DNA of 64,000 nt from an uncultured delta proteobacterium. Lineage in GTDB: Bacteria > Desulfobacterota > BSN033 > UBA1163. The position numbers and the translations under genes are program-made. The notes under the pieces are model-generated. The model made no database searches, had not been told where the DNA came from, and was given only the letters and a program-made list of their open reading frames with translations. This document shows, piece by piece, positions 15,850 to 64,000 of this stretch (position 1 is its first letter; every line of letters begins with the position of its first letter). The stretch spans positions 768,001 to 832,000 of the forward strand of contig CAWHBU010000004.1 of assembly GCA_963827685.1 (NCBI GenBank), read 5' to 3'.

Positions 15850-15922
15850 TTACACAGATTCCAAGAGCGAGATTTCTCAGATTTAAAATCGGTGTAATCG
15901 GGGTTCTAAAATCCGTGTAATC
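15848..15922. repeat. GATTACAC-GATT/AATC-GTGTAATC hairpin element, copy 1 (before terL)
   Basis: Two GATTwCwC.GATT units then two inverted units. Confidence 0.85.
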
Positions 15923-15935
15923 ACGCGAGGAACGA

Positions 15936-17615
15936 GTGAAACGAGTTTTGAGTGAAAAGAAGTTCGATCTTGAGATTGAGGCGATCCGGTCGCTGATCCA
16001 ATCGGTTGCCAAACCTTTCCCCGTTGACAAGAAACTCCAGGAGGAAAGGATCGAGCGCGGCTCGCACGATCTTGAATTTTTCGGCCGCACCTACTTCCCG
16101 CATTACATCGAGGCCCCCTGCTCGGCATTTCACCGTTACGTTTGCGAACGATATACGGCGATGGTCCTTCGGGCGGTCGAGACCGGAGAAGGAGACAAGG
16201 AGGCCGATGCGGCTCCTCGAGGAAACGCCAAATCGACCTGGGCCGATCTCGTCTTCGCCCTCTGGTGCGCCGCCTTCGGATATCGCCGTTTTATCGTCAT
16301 CGTCAGCGATACCGCTTCGCAGGCCGAGGATTTCATCCAATTCATCAAGGCGGAGCTCGAGGTGAACGAGCGGCTCGCCCAGGACTTTCCGAAACTCTGC
16401 GGCCAGGGGCCTATCTGGCGGGCCGATACGATCATCACCGCAAACCGGGTCAAAATCCGAGGCGTGGGCGCTGGGCAAAAACTAAGAGGCATGCGCCACG
16501 GATCCACACGGCCGGATCTCGTGATCGGGGATGATTTGGAGAATGACGAGGCCGTTGAATCTCCGGATCAGAGGAAGAAAATGGAGAGGTGGTTTTTCAA
16601 GGCACTGATGAAGATCGGCCAGAAGGATACGGTCTTCCTGATCCTCGGGACCATCCTTCATTACGACAGCCTTCTCAGTGATCTCCTGAGACGACCCGGA
16701 TGGAAAGGTCGCAAGTTCAAAGCCGTCATAAAATATTCCAGCTCAAAACTATGGGAAAAATGGGAAGAGATCTTCGTCGATATTTCCATCGGAAAAGAAC
16801 AAGCCGAAGAAGCGGCCGATGCCTTTTTCGAGGCCAACAAAGCGGAAATGCTTGCTGACACCGAGGTCCTCTGGCCCGAGGTCGAGGATTACTATTATCT
16901 GATGAAAATGCGGATCTCAGACGGGCCTGCCTACTTTGAATCGGAGAAACAAAACGAGCCGATCAATCCGGAAGATGCAATCTTCCTGGGAGAATGGTTT
17001 GTCGACTGGGAAGAAGGAGACGTGGATCTCACCGGCATCGCGCACGCGGGCGCATGCGATCCGTCTCTCGGAAAACGGAACAAACGTGGGGATTCATCAG
17101 CAATACTCGGCGGGCGGATGAAGGACAACGTTCTGTATCTCGACGTTGCGGATATCGAGCGCCGGCAGCCAGACAAAATTATGACCGATATTCTGGCGCA
17201 TCACACCCGTGATCCCTTCGATAAATTCAGGATCGAGATCGTGCAATTTCAGGAATTCTTTGCGCGGCAATTTGAAAAGGTCGCGCATGATACCGGCCGG
17301 ACGATGAACATCGACAACTACATTCCCAACGCCGACAAAGATTTGAGGATCATCCGGCTCCAGCCCTGGATCAAGAATGGCTGGATCCGCTTCAAGCCCA
17401 ACATGAGGGAGCTCAAACGGCACCTGATCTATTACCGGCCAAAAAATAGGGGCGGCCCAGATGATGGCCCCGATGCATTGGAGATGCTCCTCGGACTTTG
17501 TGAGGCGGGTTTGATGCCTGCCGCGTCTGTTTCGAGTGAGACGGGAAAGGGCGATTATCACGCGGAGCGGAGGCGGGGCATCATGGAGAGGTTTGGATTT
17601 AGAAGGGCAGCATGA
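15936..17615 (+). CDS. terL: terminase large subunit
   Basis: APRGNAKST Walker A, RPDLVIGDDLEND, ACDPSLG, DDGPDALE nuclease motifs. Confidence 0.93.
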   Translation: MKRVLSEKKFDLEIEAIRSLIQSVAKPFPVDKKLQEERIERGSHDLEFFGRTYFPHYIEAPCSAFHRYVCERYTAMVLRAVETGEGDKEADAAPRGNAKSTWADLVFALWCAAFGYRRFIVIVSDTASQAEDFIQFIKAELEVNERLAQDFPKLCGQGPIWRADTIITANRVKIRGVGAGQKLRGMRHGSTRPDLVIGDDLENDEAVESPDQRKKMERWFFKALMKIGQKDTVFLILGTILHYDSLLSDLLRRPGWKGRKFKAVIKYSSSKLWEKWEEIFVDISIGKEQAEEAADAFFEANKAEMLADTEVLWPEVEDYYYLMKMRISDGPAYFESEKQNEPINPEDAIFLGEWFVDWEEGDVDLTGIAHAGACDPSLGKRNKRGDSSAILGGRMKDNVLYLDVADIERRQPDKIMTDILAHHTRDPFDKFRIEIVQFQEFFARQFEKVAHDTGRTMNIDNYIPNADKDLRIIRLQPWIKNGWIRFKPNMRELKRHLIYYRPKNRGGPDDGPDALEMLLGLCEAGLMPAASVSSETGKGDYHAERRRGIMERFGFRRAA

Positions 17616-17728
17616 GTTCGTTGGGTTTATTGCCTGCCTGCGCGAAGCCGCTTCGGCATAGGCAGGGGTTCATTGAGTTTATTGAGTTAGCTCAAGGAAC
17701 TCAAGCAACCCAAGCAACTCGATGAACC
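17614..17728. repeat. 9-mer palindromic array (GRGTTYATT/AAYYCAA) carrying a 34-bp CCTGCC...GGCAGG insert at 17633-17666
   Basis: Read directly from sequence; removing the insert restores ...TTTATTG|GGTTCATT... Confidence 0.85.
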
Positions 17729-19606: not shown

Positions 19607-19671
19607 CAATCCGCAATCCCTGCCTGCGCGAAGCGCTCCGGCGAAGGCAGGCGCAATCCGAATTCCGCATT
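19607..19671. repeat. CAATCCG heptamer run interrupted by a 33-bp CCTGCC...GGCAGG element (19619-19651)
   Basis: Removing the element gives CAATCCGCAATC|CGCAATCCGAATTCCGCATT. Confidence 0.8.
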
Positions 19672-20500: not shown

Positions 20501-20628
20501 GGGTTATTGGGTTCATTGGGTTCGTTGAGTCATTGAGTTTTCGGGTTCATTGAGTTCTTTGGGTTATCGGGTCCATTGGCCTGCCGCAGGCCTGCGGCAG
20601 GCAAGCAACTCAAAGAACACAAGTAACC
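20501..20628. repeat. 9-mer palindromic array with two CCTGC.GCAGG units at centre (20580-20601)
   Basis: Read directly from sequence. Confidence 0.85.
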
Positions 20629-20655: not shown

Positions 20656-21222
20656 ATGAAGAAGAGATTAATTGAGGTTATAGCGTGCGGACTCGTAGTT
20701 GCGGCACTTGCCGTCGCGACGTACTACCGGAACGAGATCTGGGGAAGCGAGATGAGCCTGTGGCGCGACGCCGCGAAAAAATCTCCTTATAAGGATCGGC
20801 CTGCGATCAATCTTGCGACGGCGTTGGCCCAGCAGGGGAGATTTGAAGAGGCCAAACATGGGATTCAGAGATACCTTGAGATCAATCCGCAATCCATCGA
20901 GGCCCAGAACAATCTCGGAGCGATTCTGAGCCTCCAGGGAAAATACGACGAGGCCCTTTACCATATTTTTGAGGCCCTGCGAATCGATCCAAAAAACCCA
21001 ATCGCCCACAATAACGCGGGCGCGGTTCTATGCAAGCAAGGCCAGTACCAGGAGGCCCTCATCCATTTTAAGGAGGCGCTCAAAAGCAAGTCCGATTTTG
21101 AGGACGCGCGGAAGAACTACGAGACCATCTCGGCGGCGATAAAGAAGAAGGTTGAGGCTAAAGTTGAGGTTAAGGCTGAGCCAAAGGCTAACGCCAAGGC
21201 TAAGGTTGAGTCTAAAGAATAA
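20656..21222 (+). CDS. membrane-anchored TPR protein
   Basis: N-terminal TM, TYYRNEIWGSEMSLWRDAAKKSP, three TPRs (NNLGAIL..QGKYDEA); C-terminus encoded by AAGGTTGAGGCT repeats. Confidence 0.85.
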   Translation: MKKRLIEVIACGLVVAALAVATYYRNEIWGSEMSLWRDAAKKSPYKDRPAINLATALAQQGRFEEAKHGIQRYLEINPQSIEAQNNLGAILSLQGKYDEALYHIFEALRIDPKNPIAHNNAGAVLCKQGQYQEALIHFKEALKSKSDFEDARKNYETISAAIKKKVEAKVEVKAEPKANAKAKVESKE

Positions 21223-21480: not shown

Positions 21481-21554
21481 GATTTCATGGATTAAAAAGC
21501 GGGATTTCACAGATTCGAAATCCATGTAATCACGGTTTTAAAATCGGTGTAATC
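21481..21554. repeat. GATTACAC hairpin element, copy 2 (before capsid gene)
   Basis: Same four-unit architecture as copy 1. Confidence 0.85.
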
Positions 21555-21573
21555 ACGCGAGTGGAGGCAAACA

Positions 21574-24207
21574 ATGGATCCCAAAGAGGCTCAAAAGGCC
21601 AGAGCGAGCAAATGGAATATCGCCATTAAGGATGGCGGCCATGTGACGAAACCTGGGCAGTGGTCGAGCGTTCCGGATGAGGAATTCCTCGATCCGGTCA
21701 ATTATCGATATCCGTGTCCTAACGCAGATCAAACCAGGGCGGCAGCCGCCTACTGGGGCCAGGCCGACAACCAGGCGCAGTACTCGAGCGAAGAGAAAGC
21801 CATCATTAATAGAAGGCTCGATGAGATGGAGAAAAAATTTAATATTGGAGATCGTCAATCGGGTGCCATGAGCTTTTCCGAGACTCGCCGCGCTCTCTGC
21901 CAGGCGCTTTCGGCAAAATTTCCGAACATGCCCGGCGATATCGTTGATATCTACAACGATTATTGCATCTTCTCGGACGGCGAGAACAACCTTTTCGAGA
22001 TCCCATATGGTGTCGATGCAAATGGGACCATTACGTTCGGCGACAAGGTAAAGGTGAGAAAAGAAGTAACCTATTTGAAAGTGTCATCTGCCTCTCATCT
22101 CTCAAAGGCCATCGGTGCCACGACGGATCCGAATTACGGATACCAATGGGACGTTCAGATCGTCGAGGCGGGCCCAGACCGTCAAGGCACGGCGATCTAT
22201 CCCTACGAGGTCCTGAAAGCGGCGATTCCTCTGTACGAAGGGGCCAAAGTTTTTGCCCTCTCTCAGGGTCAACATGATAATCCCGATAATCCATTCGGAA
22301 AATCAGTCCGCGATCTCGTGGGGTGGATCTCGGGTGTGAGACCTAACGACAAAGGGTTGGAAGGAAAACTCAATATTTTAAAAACCGCATCCTGGCTTCG
22401 GGACATGATAGTCGATTCCTGGAATCGTGGGAAAAAAGACCTGGTCGGCCTTTCCCATGACATCCTGGCCAGGGTGGCATCGGGTCCGGCGCCGCGAAAG
22501 GCAGAAAAGATCGTCCGGGTCGATTCGGTTGATGTTGTCTATGATCCCATCGCAGGTGGGAAATTCATAAGAATGGCTGCGGCCGCGGCTAAGGCGGCGA
22601 GTCAAAAGGAGGCTACCATGTTCAAGCAGATGTTGGCCGCACTTAAAAAGCAGCGGCCGGATTTGAAGGATCAGATCGAAGCGTTGGAGGCAAAGGGCGA
22701 CGCCGTCACCGAGGACGAGATCTCCACTCTCCTGGCACAGGTGACGGGAGCAAGCACAAGCAGAAGCGAGTTTGAAAAATATCTCGAAAAACTCACCGCA
22801 TCCGTGAGCGAGATAACCAAGCAGCAGGCCCAGAAAATGATTGACGAGGCCACGAAGAAATTCGAGGATGCCCAGAAACTCCTGGCCTGCGCGCAGTTGC
22901 TGACGGATGAGCTCGAAGCGTCGAAGCTGCCGGATGTGATGAAAGCGCGGATCAGGAAACAGTTCTCCGCCAGGGTCTTCGAAGTCGAAGACCTCAAGGC
23001 CGCGATTAAGGATGAAAAAGAAATTGCGGATAAGTTGACCGGAAGCGGGACAGTGAGCGGAGTCGGCGGCCTTCGCATGGAGGTCGGAGAAGGCGAACCC
23101 GAAAAGCTCCAGGCCGCTCTCGATAAACTCATGGGAGCGGAGGTGGACGAGAAATTTAAAACCGTGCCGGCGTTCCATTCTCTCAGGGCAGCGTACACGC
23201 GGCTGACCGGAGACCCGGAGGTCCGCGGGATTCCCTCGCGCGAAGCGATCAAGCTCGGCGAGGCCTTCATGAACATGATGAGGCTGCCGGCTGCCTACAG
23301 CACAAGTTCTTTCTCGTTCGTGCTGGGCAATTCGATGTATCGGCGTCTGATCAAAGAATACAATGCGGTGAACTACCGCGAGGACGCGTTGATCTCCTTC
23401 TACCGTAACGCCGAGAATTTCAAAACCCTTGAGATCATCCAGGTCGGCTATTTCGGAGACGTGCCCGATGTAAACCCGGAAACGGCCGATTATGTCGAAA
23501 TTACCATGCCGACGGATATCGAGGCGACCTACGCCATCAACCAGAAAGGATGGATTTTGACGGTTACGCGGCGGGTGGTGCTTAACGATGACCTCAAGAC
23601 CGTGACCCAGCTCATTTCCAAGATGGGCCGTGCGCACAGAAGGACCCATGCCAAGCGCGCATGGAACAAAATTATTTCGAACGCCACCTACAAGGGCGAC
23701 AGCAAGGCCCTGTTCCATACGGATCACGGAAACCTCGGGGCTGTGGCGCTTACCCTTGACGCGACCGGCGTGGCCACTGTGACGAACCGGTTAAAGGCCA
23801 TGTACGCCCAGGCCGAGCAAGATTCTGGGGAGAAACTGGCACTCATTCCAAGATGTCTCTGGGCCCCGAGAGATTGTCTTGAAATCGCCCAGGGACTCAA
23901 TGCGCCCTGGCCGGGGGCAGCTACGCCCAACCCCCACGCCTACAGGTTCGGTCAGAACAACGAGAACATCATCTGCAACCCGCTCTTCACGGACGTCAAC
24001 GATTGGGGCCTGATTGCCGATCCTGGAGATGCGGAACTTCTCGAGGCGGCCTACCTCAACGGGCAACGGGAACCTGAATTTTTCGTCGCCGATAACCCGG
24101 TGATGGGCCAGATGTTCGTGGCGGATAAGATCCAATACAAGAGCCGCCATGAGTACGAATTTGAGATCGCGGACTATCGCGGGTTCGATAAATCGGTATG
24201 CGCATAA
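21574..24207 (+). CDS. fused N-terminal domain/prohead protease/scaffold/major capsid protein (HK97 fold, Mu gpT-like)
   Basis: N-terminal FLDPVNYRYP domain; protease-like GLSHD...SVDVVYDPIAGG; coiled-coil scaffold; capsid motifs LFHTDHGN, YLNGQREPE, IADYRG. Confidence 0.85.
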   Translation: MDPKEAQKARASKWNIAIKDGGHVTKPGQWSSVPDEEFLDPVNYRYPCPNADQTRAAAAYWGQADNQAQYSSEEKAIINRRLDEMEKKFNIGDRQSGAMSFSETRRALCQALSAKFPNMPGDIVDIYNDYCIFSDGENNLFEIPYGVDANGTITFGDKVKVRKEVTYLKVSSASHLSKAIGATTDPNYGYQWDVQIVEAGPDRQGTAIYPYEVLKAAIPLYEGAKVFALSQGQHDNPDNPFGKSVRDLVGWISGVRPNDKGLEGKLNILKTASWLRDMIVDSWNRGKKDLVGLSHDILARVASGPAPRKAEKIVRVDSVDVVYDPIAGGKFIRMAAAAAKAASQKEATMFKQMLAALKKQRPDLKDQIEALEAKGDAVTEDEISTLLAQVTGASTSRSEFEKYLEKLTASVSEITKQQAQKMIDEATKKFEDAQKLLACAQLLTDELEASKLPDVMKARIRKQFSARVFEVEDLKAAIKDEKEIADKLTGSGTVSGVGGLRMEVGEGEPEKLQAALDKLMGAEVDEKFKTVPAFHSLRAAYTRLTGDPEVRGIPSREAIKLGEAFMNMMRLPAAYSTSSFSFVLGNSMYRRLIKEYNAVNYREDALISFYRNAENFKTLEIIQVGYFGDVPDVNPETADYVEITMPTDIEATYAINQKGWILTVTRRVVLNDDLKTVTQLISKMGRAHRRTHAKRAWNKIISNATYKGDSKALFHTDHGNLGAVALTLDATGVATVTNRLKAMYAQAEQDSGEKLALIPRCLWAPRDCLEIAQGLNAPWPGAATPNPHAYRFGQNNENIICNPLFTDVNDWGLIADPGDAELLEAAYLNGQREPEFFVADNPVMGQMFVADKIQYKSRHEYEFEIADYRGFDKSVCA

Positions 24208-24223: not shown

Positions 24224-24300
24224 GATTTCACAGATAAAAAAAGGTTGGATTACACGGATTAAAAAATCTGAGCAATCTTGGTTTTAAAATCAGTGTAATC
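24224..24300. repeat. GATTACAC hairpin element, copy 3
   Basis: Same architecture; followed by AGCGAAGC and RBS. Confidence 0.85.
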
Positions 24301-24323
24301 AGCGAAGCAAAAAGGAGGAAACA

Positions 24324-24762: not shown

Positions 24763-24889
24763 GTTACTTGGGTTCATTGGGTTCGTTGTGTTTATTGGGT
24801 TTATTGAGTTCATAGGGTTAACTCAAGAAACTCAAGTAACTCAAGTAACCCAAAGAACCCAAGTAACTCAACAAACTCGATAAACCCAA
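24763..24889. repeat. 9-mer palindromic array (centre GGGTTAACTC)
   Basis: About 6 units per arm. Confidence 0.88.
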
Positions 24890-25581: not shown

Positions 25582-25620
25582 AACAGAAGGCAGTAGGCAG
25601 AAGGCAGAAAGCAGAAGGCA
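25582..25620 (+). repeat. AGGCAGW heptamer run
   Basis: AACAGAAGGCAGTAGGCAGAAGGCAGAAAGCAGAAGGCA. Confidence 0.75.
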
Positions 25621-25641
25621 AAAAGTTCCAGGATTCAAAAA

Positions 25642-26100: not shown

Positions 26101-26202
26101 TTTATGGGGTTCATTGAGTTATTGGGTTCATTGAGTTCCTGCGGCAGGCCAATAAACCCAATAAACCCAATAAACCCAATGAACCCAATGAACCCAATAA
26201 CC
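26099..26202. repeat. 9-mer palindromic array with CCTGCGGCAGG at centre (26138-26148)
   Basis: Read directly from sequence. Confidence 0.88.
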
Positions 26203-26206
26203 AGAG

Positions 26207-26692
26207 ATGAGTATAGCGAATATAAGGACCCAGATCAAAGCGATCCTTCAAACCGTGAGCGGGATCGGCGTGGTCCATGATTACGAACGCTGGGCCGTGG
26301 ATTGGGCGAAAGTCCTGGACCTCCTGAAGCCGGCGGATCAGGACAAGATCAATGGTTGGATGATCACGAGAACGGGCCTCGAAGAAAAACTGGAAACCTT
26401 CGGAATAAATCTTGCGGGCCACAGCATTCTGATTCGTGGAGTTTATAGCCTGGATGACGCAAGCGCCTCCGGCAAGACGTTCGATGATCTGATCGACGCC
26501 ATTCGAGATGCCTTCCGTGTGAAATATGATCTGAACGGATCCTGCCAGTCGATTTTTATGGATTTTGCCGAGATGCAGGCGGAAGGAAAGATCGGGATCC
26601 AGGTGAAGATCAACGAAGTGAGGACCTTTGCAGGGGTCCTCTGTCATTATTGCGAGCTCCTTCTCGGAGCGCAGGAACGAATTAGTTACTGA
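26207..26692 (+). CDS. tail terminator-like protein
   Basis: IRTQIKAILQTV.GIG.VHDYER...FAGVLCHYCEL; precedes tail tube. Confidence 0.65.
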   Translation: MSIANIRTQIKAILQTVSGIGVVHDYERWAVDWAKVLDLLKPADQDKINGWMITRTGLEEKLETFGINLAGHSILIRGVYSLDDASASGKTFDDLIDAIRDAFRVKYDLNGSCQSIFMDFAEMQAEGKIGIQVKINEVRTFAGVLCHYCELLLGAQERISY

Positions 26693-26861
26693 GTTACTTG
26701 GGTTCTTTGAGTTCTTTGAGTTCTTTGAGTTGTTTGCCTGCTGCAGGAACTCAATGAACTCAATAACCCCTGCCTATGCCGAAGCGGCTCCCGCCTACGC
26801 GAAGTCCACGCTTCGGTGGGCGTAGGTAGGTCGCGCAGGCAGGCAATGAACTCAATGAACC
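26691..26861. repeat. 9-mer palindromic array with centre CCTGCTGCAGG and nested 34-bp plus 41-bp inserts
   Basis: 26769-26789 plus 26831-26843 is the exact reverse complement of the 17633-17666 element, split by 26790-26830. Confidence 0.88.
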
Positions 26862-26877: not shown

Positions 26878-27048
26878 ATGAAAGAGAAAAAATCATCGGA
26901 GAAAACCGAGACGGCGGCTCAAGCCGAACCGTTGACCCAAATTCTGACCATCAAAGATGCGGTGACGTACATCGTCGACGAGCAGGGAAACGAAGTCAAA
27001 CAAGAATCAGAAAGCAGTAAGCAGAAAGCAGAAAGCAGTGATCAGTAA
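26878..27048 (+). CDS. small hypothetical protein (56 aa)
   Basis: GGAGG RBS; C-terminus encoded by heptamer repeats. Confidence 0.45.
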   Translation: MKEKKSSEKTETAAQAEPLTQILTIKDAVTYIVDEQGNEVKQESESSKQKAESSDQ

Positions 27049-27082
27049 TTACTGCCTACTGCCTGGTGCCTACTGCATACTG
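27006..27082. repeat. AAGCAGW/CTGCCTA heptamer palindrome
   Basis: Left arm AAAGCAGTAAGCAG..., right arm TACTGCCTACTGCC... Confidence 0.8.
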
Positions 27083-28054: not shown

Positions 28055-28129
28055 GATTACACAGATTAAAAGGCTCGATTACACCGATTTAAAAATCTGA
28101 GTAATCTCGGTTTTAGAATCAGTGTAATC
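28055..28129. repeat. GATTACAC hairpin element, copy 4
   Basis: Same architecture; followed by AGCGAAGC and RBS. Confidence 0.85.
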
Positions 28130-28153
28130 AGCGAAGCACAAAAGGAGGATCAC

Positions 28154-33475: not shown

Positions 33476-33966
33476 ATGAGCGAAGTTCAAGAAAAGTTTC
33501 TGGACTATCTCAAAAAGGATCGCAGGAGGTCCTTTAACCTGAAAGAGTTCGATCCGGATCTGGATTGTGTGATCTTCTATTCGCCGATTACAGTCCTTGA
33601 CATGGAGAAGATCCTTACTCTATCGGGCGGCGGATCGAGTACGAAGGATTTTCATATTTTTATGATCCTTGAGAAGGCCGAGACGGAGAGCGGAGAGAAA
33701 GCATTTTCAATAGATTTTAGGCCATACCTCGAGAAGATGGATTGGGACATTATATCCGGGATCTCCAACCGGATCAACAAAAGAATCCCAGTCCCGGAAG
33801 TAAAAAAAACCTTAGAGACGACCCCTTCCTCTTAAATCTGTACGCTCTCGCCGACAAAAAGCGTACCTTCGTAAAAACCATATTGGAATCTGGAATCACA
33901 ATGGAAGAGTTTCAGTACCAGATCGCATTTTATGAGATCCAGGCGGAAGAAATAAATAAGGGTTAA
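33476..33966 (+). CDS. tail assembly chaperone (33476-33835) with -1 programmed frameshift extension to 33966 (lambda G/GT-like)
   Basis: Slippery A8 run at 33802-33809 (GTA AAA AAA ACC); open -1 frame ...NLRDDPFLLNLYALA...; directly before tape measure. Confidence 0.8.
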
Positions 33967-34095
33967 TTGAGTTTGTTGGGCTCATTGGGTTTATTGGGCT
34001 TATTGAGTTCATCGGGTTTATTGGGTTCGTTGGGTTTATTGGGTCTATAGGATTAACTCAAAGAACCCAAAGAACTCAAAGAACCCAAGTAACCC
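33960..34095. repeat. 9-mer palindromic array
   Basis: About 10 left units and 5 right units. Confidence 0.88.
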
Positions 34096-34112
34096 ACTGA
34101 GCGGAGCGAAAC

Positions 34113-52579: not shown

Positions 52580-54049
52580 TCACTTCAATAGTTCCAATAA
52601 TCCCTGGACCGGCTCCTGGATAAGATCCAAAACCGGTCCTGGATACAAACCAATAAAGAGCACGGCGATCGCCAGGGTTACCAAAATCACCGTTTCCCGA
52701 GTTGTCACATCCCAGAAGGTGTGCTCTTTCCTTGTTTCACCGAAAAGCGTGGATTGGACTACCCAGAGAATGTAGATGACAGTAAAAAGGAGACCGGCGA
52801 ACCCGATCACCGAAACCGCTGTGTTTTCCCGGAAGGTACCGATCAGGATGAGGATCTCGCCCACGAAATTGTTGAGCCCCGGGAAACCCATAGAGGCAAT
52901 AGCAAAGAACAAGAAAAAGGCACTGAAGACAGGCATTTTTTTCCAGAGCCCGCCGAGATCGGATAAGTCCCTGGAGTGGGTCCGTTCATCTAACATCCCC
53001 ACAAGAATAAAGAGTGCCGAGGTGGTCAGCCCGTGGTTGACCAGTTGCAACACGGCACCCGAAAGGGTCAGGATGTTCCAGACCGCAATTCCGATCACCA
53101 CGAGGCCCATATGAGCAATGCTTGAGTAAGCCACCAAGCGTTTGATATCCTTTTGCGCCAAAGCAATCCAGGCTGCATAGAATAAGCCAGCCAATCCCAG
53201 CCCGAGCAGGAGAGGGACAGAGAGCTTAGCTGCCGTGGGGAAAAGTGGAAAGGCAAACCGCAATAGTGCATACGCACCCGTCTTCAGGAGTAAGCCAGCC
53301 AGAATAACACTCCCTGCCGTAGGTGCTTCTGTATGGGCATCGGGCAGCCAGGTATGGACAGGAATGATAGGGACCTTGATTGCAAAAGCTAACAGGAACG
53401 CGGCGTAGAGCAATATTTCAGCAGACCATGAGAGAGGCGTATGGATCAATTGAGTGAAGGAGAAGGTGTAAGTCCCGGTCTGACTGCCATGGATGAGGTA
53501 GAGGCTGATCAATGCGATCAACATCAGCAGGCTGCCGGTCATGGTGAAAATGACAAATTTGAAGGTGGCATAAATTCGTCTTTCATGACCCCATATCCCG
53601 ATGAGGAAAAACATGGGGAAGAGTTGGACTTCCCAAAACAGGTAGAACAAGAAGAGATCTGTGGAGAGAAAGACACCCAGGATTCCGGTCTGCATGATGA
53701 GTAAGAAGAAGTGGAATGCTCCCACACGGTTTTCAATTTGCCTCCACGATAGGAGCACACAGAGGATGCCGAGAAATGCCGTGAGCAGGATAAGCATCAA
53801 GCTGATGCCATCCAGGCCAAGGCTATACCGTATGCCAAAGCGTTCTATCCAGGGAAAATCCTCTACCAATAACCATCTGACTCCGGTCGCGGATTGCGCC
53901 TTGAGATCCATGGTCAAGAGGGAAAGGATCAGGAAAAAATCTGCGAGGGTAATGGCGAAGCTGGTCCATCGGCACAGTTTCGCATGACGCCAGGAGAGAA
54001 GCACCAGCAGGCTGCCGAAAAAGGGAAGAAATACAATTAAAGAAAGCAT
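52580..54049 (-). CDS. nuoM: NADH-quinone oxidoreductase subunit M
   Basis: LDGIS, FYLFWE, HTWLPDAHTEAP, KRLVAYSSIAHMG. Confidence 0.95.
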   Translation of the reverse strand: MLSLIVFLPFFGSLLVLLSWRHAKLCRWTSFAITLADFFLILSLLTMDLKAQSATGVRWLLVEDFPWIERFGIRYSLGLDGISLMLILLTAFLGILCVLLSWRQIENRVGAFHFFLLIMQTGILGVFLSTDLFLFYLFWEVQLFPMFFLIGIWGHERRIYATFKFVIFTMTGSLLMLIALISLYLIHGSQTGTYTFSFTQLIHTPLSWSAEILLYAAFLLAFAIKVPIIPVHTWLPDAHTEAPTAGSVILAGLLLKTGAYALLRFAFPLFPTAAKLSVPLLLGLGLAGLFYAAWIALAQKDIKRLVAYSSIAHMGLVVIGIAVWNILTLSGAVLQLVNHGLTTSALFILVGMLDERTHSRDLSDLGGLWKKMPVFSAFFLFFAIASMGFPGLNNFVGEILILIGTFRENTAVSVIGFAGLLFTVIYILWVVQSTLFGETRKEHTFWDVTTRETVILVTLAIAVLFIGLYPGPVLDLIQEPVQGLLELLK

Positions 54050-54059
54050 ACCAATGCCC

Positions 54060-55937
54060 TCACCCAGAAAACCATCCAAAGGCTAAAGCGCAGAGTATCG
54101 CTGTGAACCCCAAGAGGAGCATGACCAGATAAGTCGAGAGCCTCCCTGTCGTCCAATGCTGCAATCCAGTAGAAAAGATCTGGAAGAGATTTCCCGTTTG
54201 ATCCATTCCTTCGTCCACAACCCCTTCGTCAATTTTCAACCATAAGAACGCTGCGATTCGTTGATAAGGCCGGACAACCGCTTTTTGATAGAATCGATCT
54301 AAGTAAAATCCCGACTCAAGGAGCTCATTCAGACCCTTTTGCAATGCTGCCGGCTGGCGGGCATAGAGAAAGTAGGCCCCTATCAGCACGGCGATGGAGA
54401 AAAGCCCGCTCCCAATTTCCATCGTCCACTCTAAGCCAGGAGAAACATTAAGCTGGGGAAGACTTCCAGAGACTGGGGAGAGGTATTGTGCCAGCCATTC
54501 CTTTCCAGACCAGATGACTGGAAGATTCAGAAAACCACTGAACAAAGAGAGAAGAACCAATGGCCACAATGTCCAGACCATTAACTTTGGCACCCGTCGA
54601 ATCTCACGATCTTCCTGGTTTTCGGATGTCCCCAGGAAGACGATGAAAAAAAGGCGAAATATATAAAGGGGTGTTAACAGAGCTGTAACCGCTGCCATGA
54701 ACCATAGGACTTTATAAATCAGTTCCGGGTGTCCGAAGGTCGCTAAAAGAATGCGGTCCTTGCTGAAAAAACCTCCTGTAAAGGGGAGGGCACCCAAGGA
54801 GAGCGATCCGGCCAGAAAGAACCAAAAAACGGTAGGCAGACGATCGCGCAGATGACGCATTCGAAAGATATCATGCTCATCATGGAGGGCCTGAATCACA
54901 CACCCAGCAGCGAGAAAAAGCAAGGCCTTAAAAAAGGCATGCGAAAGCAAGTGGAACATTCCTCCGATGATATCGCCAACCCCGACTCCCAGAAACATAT
55001 AGCTCACCTGGCTGATGGTTGAATAAGCCAATACCCGCTTGATATCCTTTTGGGTCAAAGCCGAGCAGGCTGCATAAAGAGCCGAGACGGCACCGACAAT
55101 GGAGATAGTGAGCATGGTCATCGAGGACAGCCTTACGACCGGAAAGAGCCTCATGAGTAAATAGACGCCTGCGGTGACCATGGTGGCCGCGTGAATTAGA
55201 GCAGAGACGGGCGTAGGCCCTGCCATGGCATCGGGCAGCCAAACTGTCAAAGGAAGTTGGGCAGACTTGCCGACAGCAGCCCAGAGAAGCAAGAGCCCCA
55301 ATGCCGTCGCCATACCCAAGCTCAGGGAGGAGGCCTTCGCATTAATGTGGAAGATAGAAAATTCATTAAAAACAATAAAGAAAAGGCCGATGGCAATCCC
55401 GAAGGCCACGTCTCCGATGCGTGTCAGCACAAAGGCTTTTCGACCTGCTGCTGCATTGACCACATCCCGGTACCAGAAACCGATAAGGGCGTATGAGCAG
55501 AAACCAACACCTTCCCAGCCCAGGTACAAAAAGATCAGGTTGTCTGAGAGGGTGATCACCAGCATGGAGAAGACAAAAAGGTTCATGTAACAAAAGTAAC
55601 GGACATAATCTTCATCCTCCCGCATAAAGCTGACAGAATAGAGATGGATGAGACTGGAAACAAAGGTGACCATCAAGGCCATGATCGCTGCAAGGGGATT
55701 ATAATAAACACTCATGGAAGCCGAAAAATCATTGAGGGCAATCCATCTGAACAGGGTGAGGACATAACTTTTCTGACCTGCCATGGCAAAAGCGACGATC
55801 GCCATCGACAAAGATCCCAAGACACTGCCGCAGGCAATGGTTTCTACCGCCCGTCTCGGCAAACGGCGTCCCACGACCGCTTGGAGAAACGCTCCCAATA
55901 AAGGGAAAAGGATTAGCAGAAGGAGGATCGTTTTCAT
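54060..55937 (-). CDS. nuoL: NADH-quinone oxidoreductase subunit L
   Basis: GKSAQLPL.VWLPDAMAGPTPVSALIHAATMV. Confidence 0.95.
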   Translation of the reverse strand: MKTILLLLILFPLLGAFLQAVVGRRLPRRAVETIACGSVLGSLSMAIVAFAMAGQKSYVLTLFRWIALNDFSASMSVYYNPLAAIMALMVTFVSSLIHLYSVSFMREDEDYVRYFCYMNLFVFSMLVITLSDNLIFLYLGWEGVGFCSYALIGFWYRDVVNAAAGRKAFVLTRIGDVAFGIAIGLFFIVFNEFSIFHINAKASSLSLGMATALGLLLLWAAVGKSAQLPLTVWLPDAMAGPTPVSALIHAATMVTAGVYLLMRLFPVVRLSSMTMLTISIVGAVSALYAACSALTQKDIKRVLAYSTISQVSYMFLGVGVGDIIGGMFHLLSHAFFKALLFLAAGCVIQALHDEHDIFRMRHLRDRLPTVFWFFLAGSLSLGALPFTGGFFSKDRILLATFGHPELIYKVLWFMAAVTALLTPLYIFRLFFIVFLGTSENQEDREIRRVPKLMVWTLWPLVLLSLFSGFLNLPVIWSGKEWLAQYLSPVSGSLPQLNVSPGLEWTMEIGSGLFSIAVLIGAYFLYARQPAALQKGLNELLESGFYLDRFYQKAVVRPYQRIAAFLWLKIDEGVVDEGMDQTGNLFQIFSTGLQHWTTGRLSTYLVMLLLGFTAILCALAFGWFSG

Positions 55938-63003: not shown

Positions 63004-63146
63004 AATTGAGGAATTGCGAATTTAGGAATTCATAAGGCTTATTGGGTCAATTGAGCTTATTGGGTTATTGAGTTAACGCAAAGAACTCAAGTAACCCAAG
63101 CAACTCAAATAACCTTGTAATTCCCCAATTCCTAAATTCCTCAATT
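63004..63146. repeat. nested host palindrome: AATTGAGG/CCTCAATT 8-mer arms enclosing a 9-mer palindromic array
   Basis: Inner array centred on GAGTTAACGC, same family as the prophage arrays. Confidence 0.85.
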
Positions 63147-64000
63147 CACCGATCAATATCCGGTAAGATGTAATCGATTGACCCAACAATGGCCAGCAGG
63201 TCCGAAACCAGCCTTCCCTTCGCCATCAACGGCATCACCTGAACATTGGCGAAGCCAGGAGTTCGTATGCGCATCCGGTATGCCATATGGAGTCCATCGC
63301 TGACGACATAGTAGCCTTGCTCGCCTCTTGCAATCTCAGTGGCTGTGTAAGCCTCTCCTCTGGGAATCTTTGGTCCTCGTGTCACATTAATAAAATGATG
63401 AATAAGGCTCTCGATATCTTTTAGAGTGTCTGATTTATCCGGAACCGCATAACGATAGTCATCGCAGACATACCTTCCGCCGGGCATCTTGGCTGCAGCC
63501 TGTTCGATGATCCTTAAACTCTGTCGCATCTCCTCCACCCGAACCAGATATCGTGCATAGCAGTCCCCATTTTCAGCCGTTGGAATGTCGAATTGAAAAT
63601 TCTCGTAGCCAGAGTAAGGAAATTTTTTTCGCAGATCCCATTCCAGGCCGCAAGCACGTAAGTTGGGCCCAGTAACTCCCCATTCCATGGCATCCTTCAG
63701 AGAGAGCTGTCCTACACCGCGAGTCCTGGCTTCAAAAATGGGATTTTTTGTGATCAGTGATTCGTATTCTTTGAGGCGGGCCGGAAAGATTTTAATAAAG
63801 TCATCGACCGCCTCTTTCCATCCCTCCGGTAAATCGGCCGCTACCCCCCCGATTCGAAACCAGCTTGGGTGAAGACGGCCGCCCGTGATCAGTTCAACGA
63901 TATCCATGAGCTTTTCCCTTTCACGGAAGGTATAGAAAGTCGGGGTGATCGCTCCCACATCGTGGCAATAGGTACCAAACCAGACGAGATGATTGTTAAT
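63146..64000 (-). CDS. nuoD: NADH-quinone oxidoreductase subunit D (or CD), 5' truncated by window
   Basis: [51 protein letters not shown]. Confidence 0.93.

Follow-up and report, generated by a model that had tools for sequence, protein, structure and literature searches.

Small CCTGCC hairpins inserted precisely into other repeats across many bacterial lineages, and a candidate GIY-YIG mobiliser

The CCTGCC hairpins, elements of about 30–50 nt, are among the smallest mobile DNAs seen. Their copies are dispersed over many lineages and accumulate in other repeats and in one another at recurring bonds. Each copy enters complete between two neighbouring bases, with nothing duplicated or lost. 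Judged from the sequences of filled and empty sites, CCTGCC-type elements are very probably mobile and precise in their insertion. The best explanation of the whole, to which somewhat less than even confidence is given, would be that they are non-autonomous mobile hairpins cut in trans by a GIY-YIG nuclease.

Mini-elements of a Mu-like prophage

The window, meaning the whole 64,000-nucleotide stretch that was analysed, contains a Mu-like prophage followed on its right by host genes, including the nuo operon. Mini-elements occur in the prophage part only, at about 0.5–45 kb. The features are listed below; array bounds are approximate.

550–45007, plus strand: Mu-like prophage (repressor, Mu transposase, AAA, Gam, GemA, terminase, MuF, capsid, tail, Dam)
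17613–17728, no strand: 9-mer inverted array around A
17633–17666, plus strand (TNC strand on plus): mini-element A, 34 nt, between the terminase and portal-like genes
19607–19671, no strand: heptamer (CAATCCG-type) run around C
19619–19651, plus strand: mini-element C, 33 nt, in the heptamer run 5' of the MuF-like head gene
20580–20601, no strand: two 11-nt units, head-to-tail, at an array centre
26138–26148, no strand: 11-nt CCTGC-G-GCAGG unit at an array centre
26686–26861, no strand: 9-mer inverted array around B
26737–26747, no strand: 11-nt CCTGC-T-GCAGG unit at the centre of array B
26769–26843, minus strand: mini-element B, 34 nt, equal to A, split into 26769–26789 and 26831–26843
26790–26830, plus strand: 41-nt relative in the apical loop of B

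The three mini-elements and their Russian-doll nesting had been described in a sequence-only reading, and they are present as written: A and C were found in place, C within its heptamer run, and B is the exact reverse complement of A once the 41 nt inside it are left out. Both 34-mers lie in the same orientation at the ATTG^GGTT bond of the 9-mer family. The 41-mer reads CCCGCC, TAC, an arm, TTC and GGTGGG plus a tail. The 16-nt 5' word of the element occurs twice in the window against 0.07 expected, a number reached by none of 100 shuffles.

Removal of A and B restores the array without duplication, as had been claimed. Once their flanks are joined, A, B and the 41-mer give junctions with exact counterparts at other points of the window, of 20, 16 and 36 nt, respectively. 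If one to five duplicated bases are assumed instead, the longest matches are 11 nt for each of the three. The clean insertion of C, claimed likewise, stands less firmly: its joined junction does recur, over 13 nt, but the duplication models reach 12 nt, so the junction test discriminates weakly, and of the two matches for C one is simply the adjacent unit of the same heptamer run. The possibility that A and B arose by duplication of one larger segment was checked and is not plainly the case. The elements are identical at 34 of 34 positions and their left flanks match at only 14 of 19, which argues against a single segmental duplication.

Four 11-nt CCTGC-N-GCAGG units, absent from the earlier description, mark the centres of 9-mer arrays (four against 0.05 expected). 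At these turning points, a few array bases are lost in comparison with unfilled centres. Such units are possibly minimal members of the family or footprints of it, and the one at 26737–26747 is probably a minimal or degraded member.

Arrays of 7- and 9-mers lie in the prophage part of the window as well as in the host part and are therefore a host-wide feature. They fill many intergenic gaps of both parts, often as inverted pairs (24763–24889, 33960–34096, 25584–25625, 27008–27082 and 63039–63147). No enzyme associated with the arrays was found in the window. The same holds for a mobiliser of the mini-elements: as had been noted, the window encodes no candidate, a search for GIY-YIG, Y1, DUF559 or similar genes having found none. 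The Mu DDE transposase is present, and its chemistry duplicates the target. No orthologous empty allele of the window sites was found; the only match of the portal-like protein is a phage at 39% identity, too distant to be used for this purpose.

Other repeats and genes were seen in passing. A dispersed repeat of about 65–85 nt (ATTACAC..GTGTAATC type) has four prophage copies, at 15863–15929, 21495–21561, 24230–24313 and 28059–28142. Positions 21574–24207 encode a capsid-type protein of 877 aa whose N-terminus carries a DUF6582 domain, and a TPR gene lies within the head module at 20656–21222. Between two antiporter-like nuo subunits, a 62-nt repeat with 79% identity (53118–53179 and 55015–55076) is probably due to paralogy.

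Spread, build and junctions of the family

A scan of GTDB genomes for the 5' word of the element, a gap of 6–30 nt and GGCAGG returned at least 116 stretches (115 loci) with at least 119 matches, representing at least 117 distinct sites in at least 83 assemblies. Dispersal of the family is borne out. The matches listed are a sample and not a census. Among them, 116 sites fall into 74 flank clusters, and five of the 117 sites carry the exact 34-mer of the window. The lineages represented in this list are Nitrospirota, Nitrospinota, Deltaproteobacteria/Thermodesulfobacteriota, Alphaproteobacteria, Bacteroidetes, Ignavibacteriaceae, Zixibacteria, Peribacteria/Peregrinibacteria and Pseudobdellovibrionaceae. 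A Thiobacillus locus (L104) departs from the common architecture, perhaps because it matched by chance, and is kept in every count. Three element variants and one related hairpin gave chance-level matches only in plasmid and phage collections. No description of the hairpin family was found in the CC-licensed main text of PMC and bioRxiv, and figures or tables of repeat consensus sequences, such as those of PMC3733652 and PMC6006769, could hold one. The family is widespread and real, and apparently undescribed in the texts searched.

The copies share one build. CCTGCC, TGC, a self-closing arm, a trinucleotide and a 3' block of fixed length can be read in 103 of 119 copies (the 117 sites listed plus two from the window). 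The trinucleotide, which the search had left free, is TTC in 80, TCC in 15, TAC in six and another in two, so that TNC accounts for 101 of the 103 among the matches listed. Elements of 31, 33, 34, 42 and 45 nt differ chiefly in the length of the arm. A relaxed scan for the architecture gave 24 distinct matches against 1.7 in shuffled DNA, including ten anchor-type copies and two that are non-members by eye; seven different compensated basal stems were seen, and the 41-mer of the window fits the pattern. The terminal inverted repeat had been taken as the defining structure; the conserved feature is instead a 3 × 3 internal loop. It lies between a basal stem and a variable apical hairpin and consists of TNC × TNC, or GNA × GNA on the opposite strand. 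The latter is the paired-loop form of the stable GNA motif. GNA loops with sheared G–A pairs are described as stable DNA motifs (PMC3201870, PMC13037366), and we infer that the DNA fold is the functional fold of the element. A C(UNCG)G RNA reading of the short forms is possible. Rfam covariance models at the gathering score gave no match in the window and, in six loci, only tRNA and group II intron matches.

Precision was assessed by looking up the joined flanks of each site in all fetched DNA, with the junction shifted stepwise from –5 to +5. With 9 nt per side, an exact empty junction of 18 nt exists for 11 of the 117 sites listed at offset 0 and for none at any other offset in that range. 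With 8 nt per side (16-nt junctions), the numbers are 14 of 116 listed sites at offset 0 against at most one elsewhere, and with 7 nt per side 19 against up to 11. Junction words of 6 bases are uninformative (41 at offset 0 against 34–57 elsewhere, again among the matches listed). For the sites listed, the empty copies can be recognised as paralogues of the repeat that hosts the filled one. In one pair (L024 and L098), 152 of 156 columns match apart from a single 34-nt gap, and the difference between filled and empty is exactly the 34-mer; this is a 156-nt repeat region common to two assemblies and not a proven allele. These results agree with the claim of precise insertion without duplication. 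Apparent 2-nt duplications are in excess among the matches listed (30 against 14.3 shuffled), and a reading of them as target-site duplications was rejected because empty GA^GA and GG^GG sites retain both halves.

Beside the filled site of L024, a segment of 1329 nt is duplicated within positions 1–2901 at 100% identity and with a spacing of 1572 nt. This duplication may be real or an assembly artefact.

Target sites and relation to known repeats

Insertion favours pre-existing repeats, as had been proposed. A 14-mer of the flank recurs in the data for 56 of 115 listed sites (44 of 97 when the largest class, GCGA^GAAC, is left out); among intergenic controls the figure is 242 of 1050. Survival in harmless sites may account for part of this enrichment. 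The host repeats among the matches listed are heptamer arrays, CGTC-type REPs, CCCCT..AGGGG hairpins, a Nitrospira repeat, tRNA-linked hairpins and the element family itself; the CGTC-type assignment was made by eye, with the family name taken from PMC3733652. Nesting is not confined to the window, for seven of the 117 listed sites have an outer copy that resumes past an inner relative, and two more listed copies sit inside shorter CCTGC..CAGG units. Three levels of nesting, as in the window, are found in L003 and L059. The 9-mer target of A and B is absent from the contexts of the matches listed, and the heptamer-array bond of C is used again in L043 and other 7-mer arrays.

Sequence around the joint is only weakly constrained. 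Among the matches listed, a purine precedes the element in 61 of 74 independent contexts and G or C follows it in 55 of 74; by site, the figures are 104 and 94 of 117. The commonest flanking 4-mer is found in six of the 74 contexts on the left and four on the right. The suggestion that the elements target hairpin DNA holds in part: in a strict test, junctions lie within a hairpin of at least 6 bp at 26 of 115 listed sites against 134 of 852 intergenic controls, an excess that is modest and no more. Empty sites have a lower folding energy (–8.8 against –6.2 kcal/mol), which is confounded by GC content (0.56 against 0.50). A rule by which the elements enter hairpin loops at their 3' edge was considered and rejected: the signal is weak, and the sites of A and B lie in array arms.

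Orientation depends on the target. At the heptamer-array bond, both orientations are used in a ratio of 5:4, C of the window included, and in the CGTC-type loop the ratio is 2:1, among the matches listed. Two other target classes are strictly oriented in the same list (20:0 and 12:0), which could be due to strand-specific chemistry or to composites passed on by descent. One flank cluster, that of the GCGA^GAAC class, has 20 listed sites in 16 genomes and a single orientation; six sequence variants of 32–42 nt are found at its site.

Eight of 81 listed sites lie within ORFs of at least 250 aa. Of these eight, six were looked at and resemble spurious frames or N-terminal extensions. In-frame insertion into real genes is not established. 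The elements do yield read-through peptides and so distort gene starts in MAG annotation.

The closest parallel, compared by description only, is with the SDRs of cyanobacteria, in which a very small structured repeat is set at a fixed point of another repeat. SDR1–8 of Nostocaceae, from Elhai et al. in 2008, are said to be 21–27 nt long and to be inserted in tandem heptamers. We know of no enzyme that moves them. SDR5 has been described as inserted in HIP1 (PMC5861425). By analogy, the CCTGCC hairpins would work like SDR elements, as tiny repeats set into other repeats. They differ from the SDRs in that they span many non-cyanobacterial lineages with near-identical sequence, measure 30–50 nt, nest in themselves and have a GNA × GNA loop; unlike the SDRs of Nostocaceae, no cyanobacterium appears in the titles of the 115 loci listed.

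The hairpins resemble REPs in size and fold and lack the REP tag and doublet. Like GTAG REPs and REPINs, they are imperfect hairpins in the range of 20–65 nt with a short tail, intergenic, multicopy and non-autonomous, as these are described in PMC3733652, PMC3116915, PMC6006769 and PMC3479197, and the hairpin–bulge–hairpin form recalls long REPs (PMC6006769). The rule given there places GT[AG]G 0–2 nt 5' of the hairpin foot, whereas the tails on the GNA strand of the CCTGCC elements read CCTG, CCAG or CTTG. The unit gained between empty and filled copies is one hairpin and not the inverted doublet of a REPIN, and the junction bases vary, unlike the CT at which TnpA-REP cleaves. REP families are mostly species-limited, whereas the CCTGCC family crosses phyla. 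REPs also serve as its insertion targets, the reverse of the insertion of REPs into palindromes reported in PMC3733652. The same source describes CGTC-tagged REPs as small hairpins without a dedicated transposase; these share the small hairpin form, and one CGTC family flanks a GIY-YIG gene in L072, but tag and fold are different and the CGTC REPs host the insertion. With the non-autonomous derivatives of IS200/IS605, the hairpins share the absence of target duplication and the implication of folded single-stranded DNA; those derivatives, however, have two subterminal hairpins, a fixed tetra- or pentanucleotide target and a fixed orientation, a set of traits that the CCTGCC elements do not share. 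As to orientation, the 5:4 and 2:1 ratios reported above contradict a fixed one and the 20:0 and 12:0 classes do not. Inverted ends of 6–7 bp recall a classical MITE of the DDE type, from which the elements differ by leaving no target duplication.

How the hairpins may move

Enzymes were sought in 144 ORFs of up to 450 aa, out of 179 within 450 nt of copies, in 79 longer loci. No Y1, IS110 or resolvase gene was found among these neighbours of the matches listed, and a Y1 motif gave no match in the 115 listed loci or the window. For RAYT genes, the figures are likewise 0 of 144 neighbours and no motif match, in the flanks of the sampled copies listed. The non-autonomous nature of the elements can be counted as supported. 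A RAYT/Y1 or small nuclease gene flanked by the element had been suggested as something to look for: the Y1 part of this found no counterpart, and the nuclease part found a single one, a GIY-YIG gene (one of the 144 neighbours listed) in L039. There, a tRNA-Ser is followed by a hairpin of the same build, which begins at the CCA of the tRNA and is interrupted by a 31-mer, and then by a 79-aa GIY-YIG gene. Hairpins of this kind, whose 3' arm is complementary to the CCA-containing 5' arm, lie at or near the CCA end of four tRNA genes, that of L039 included, and small nuclease genes of other loci stand between inverted hairpins:

L039, 6148–6237: same-build hairpin at or near a tRNA CCA end
L084, 361–435: same-build hairpin at or near a tRNA CCA end
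L036, 11046–11120: same-build hairpin at or near a tRNA CCA end
L014, 1927–2001: same-build hairpin at or near a tRNA CCA end
L072, 10735–11028: GIY-YIG gene with inverted flanking hairpins (CGTC-type or other)
L016, 17301–17702: GIY-YIG gene with inverted flanking hairpins (CGTC-type or other)
L024, 5345–5755: DUF559 gene with inverted flanking hairpins (CGTC-type or other)

The fetched DNA of L014, L036 and L084 contains no GIY-YIG gene, and the GIY-YIG query had no match in the plasmid and phage collections. The link to GIY-YIG genes is not exclusive, as two such genes are flanked by different hairpin families; nuclease genes between inverted hairpins suggest where the mobiliser that CGTC REPs lack might be sought.

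Where the N-terminus of a homologue has been called too long, the extension shows the upstream DNA in the form of a read-through peptide. Among close homologues of the GIY-YIG protein, tRNA-like read-through lies upstream in 11 of 16, and the upstream peptides fit the hairpin in 12 of 16 against 3.1 shuffled (12 of 17 against 2.5 in a second count), with a pattern designed after some of these homologues had been viewed. One upstream peptide, PAYAKASAGKP, begins like a translation of the 41-mer of the window. No downstream peptide of the close homologues (0 of 18) fits. In independent cluster representatives, the same pattern fits 8 of 37 against 5.2 shuffled (maximum 8) and a stricter one 5 of 36 against 1.95 (maximum 5). 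A core pattern is found upstream in 13 of 37 against 6.3, upstream on the other strand in 13 of 37 against 6.8, and downstream on the opposite strand in 13 of 32 against 5.7. By these peptide patterns, the association of hairpin and GIY-YIG gene appears strong for the upstream side of one subfamily and modest beyond it.

To our knowledge, GIY-YIG enzymes hydrolyse DNA and do not perform strand transfer. The nearest solved relatives of the protein profile are UPF0213 BH0048 and SLX1, which places the candidate in the family of stand-alone prokaryotic Slx1-like nucleases (UPF0213). Slx1 belongs to the structure-specific endonucleases; the prokaryotic relatives are described as stand-alone minimal domains with a predicted role in repair (PMC1564403), in passages that mention no link to tRNA-adjacent hairpins or mobile repeats.

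The chemistry first suggested for these elements was of the HUH/Y1 type, in which a RAYT- or TnpA-like enzyme encoded elsewhere would peel a single-stranded hairpin off and paste it in. HUH enzymes cut and rejoin single strands, there is no target duplication, two target classes are strictly oriented, and the 5' tail with its hairpin–bulge–hairpin resembles long REPs (PMC6006769). The guide GT[AG]G is nevertheless missing at the hairpin foot, and the 74 contexts listed share no fixed target word, although TnpA-REP requires CT (PMC3479197) and IS608-type enzymes a tetranucleotide. One bond takes both orientations in 7-mer arrays and in the CGTC-type loop, and Y1 is absent from the neighbours and by motif (among the matches listed; ORFs of at most 450 aa, with 36 of 115 loci short). 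This suggestion is therefore not upheld as it stood and is considered unlikely. Either orientation at one bond and a weak sequence bias would be natural if no dedicated enzyme existed and hairpin oligonucleotides, freed by structure-specific nucleases of the host, were captured at breaks made in other repeats by the repeats' own nucleases or by repair. The targets do include hairpin families that flank small nuclease genes (L072, L016 and L024), and the small flank losses of the array-centre 11-mers fit capture for those units. Random capture, however, should give ragged ends, and the ends are invariant and the joints precise over many lineages; capture ranks below the HUH/Y1 reading. Lower again stands a spread at the RNA level, in which the hairpin would be excised from a transcript, ligated into another structured RNA and returned to DNA by reverse transcription. 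A similar model has reportedly been proposed for cyanobacterial SDRs. C(UNCG)G is an RNA tetraloop motif, and on the plus strand the variable TNC with its neighbours can also be read as one; a variant copy at L077 (741–782) even lies inside a group II intron, just before the reverse transcriptase domain. But the 42–45-mers use the same bases in an apical stem, which favours the internal-loop reading, there is no Rfam match, and only one reverse transcriptase neighbour was found among four long ORFs scanned.

Two further accounts are very improbable. The hairpins might not be independently mobile; a few ancient insertions could have been carried along passively by the repeats that host them, or copied by gene conversion. 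The single orientation of the GCGA^GAAC cluster and the same phase of A and B in one family point that way, and against it stand the 74 unrelated flank clusters and the several variants at the GCGA^GAAC bond, both among the matches listed, as well as nesting in both directions; as a complete account, passive composites are already largely refuted. Least probable is that the elements are non-autonomous passengers of IS110/IS1111 recombinases. Such recombinases target REPs, and both the repeat targets and the lack of duplication would suit them. There is, however, no long target word and no shared core dinucleotide (A precedes 44 of 117 listed sites, though the element ends in GG), and the 144 neighbours listed contain no IS110.

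A small Slx1-like GIY-YIG nuclease acting in trans is tentatively preferred as the mobiliser of the hairpins. In this proposal, the element would fold in single-stranded form into a basal stem, the GNA × GNA loop, a variable apical stem-loop and a short tail, and would move as such a folded single strand. It would enter a repeat that is extruded or single-stranded, by joining at a nick or blunt break whose position is set by the fold of the target more than by a sequence word, with a weak S-R^S bias only. At the weakest step, the cutting would be done in trans by the stand-alone Slx1-like GIY-YIG nuclease, whose gene lies behind a tRNA with a same-build hairpin just upstream, and a host ligase or polymerase would complete the joint. 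The CCTGCC family may then be a free-roaming offshoot of the gene-linked hairpin. The wider notion that minimal Slx1-like GIY-YIG nucleases at tRNA 3' ends mobilise a cross-phylum superfamily of GNA × GNA hairpins is rather doubtful.

The movement of repeats shorter than 50 nt has long awaited an explanation. With its defined ends, its many precise filled and empty junctions, its conserved fold and a 79-aa protein as candidate enzyme, the family makes the question amenable to bench work with short oligonucleotides. Practical interest would also attach to a scarless insertion system of 30–50 nt whose apical arm can be exchanged. If the proposed mobiliser is the true one, it would form a GIY-YIG counterpart of the RAYT–REP pair and a route of transposition without DDE, HUH or recombinase chemistry, and the hairpins would be hyperparasites of the genome's other pairs of small nuclease and repeat.
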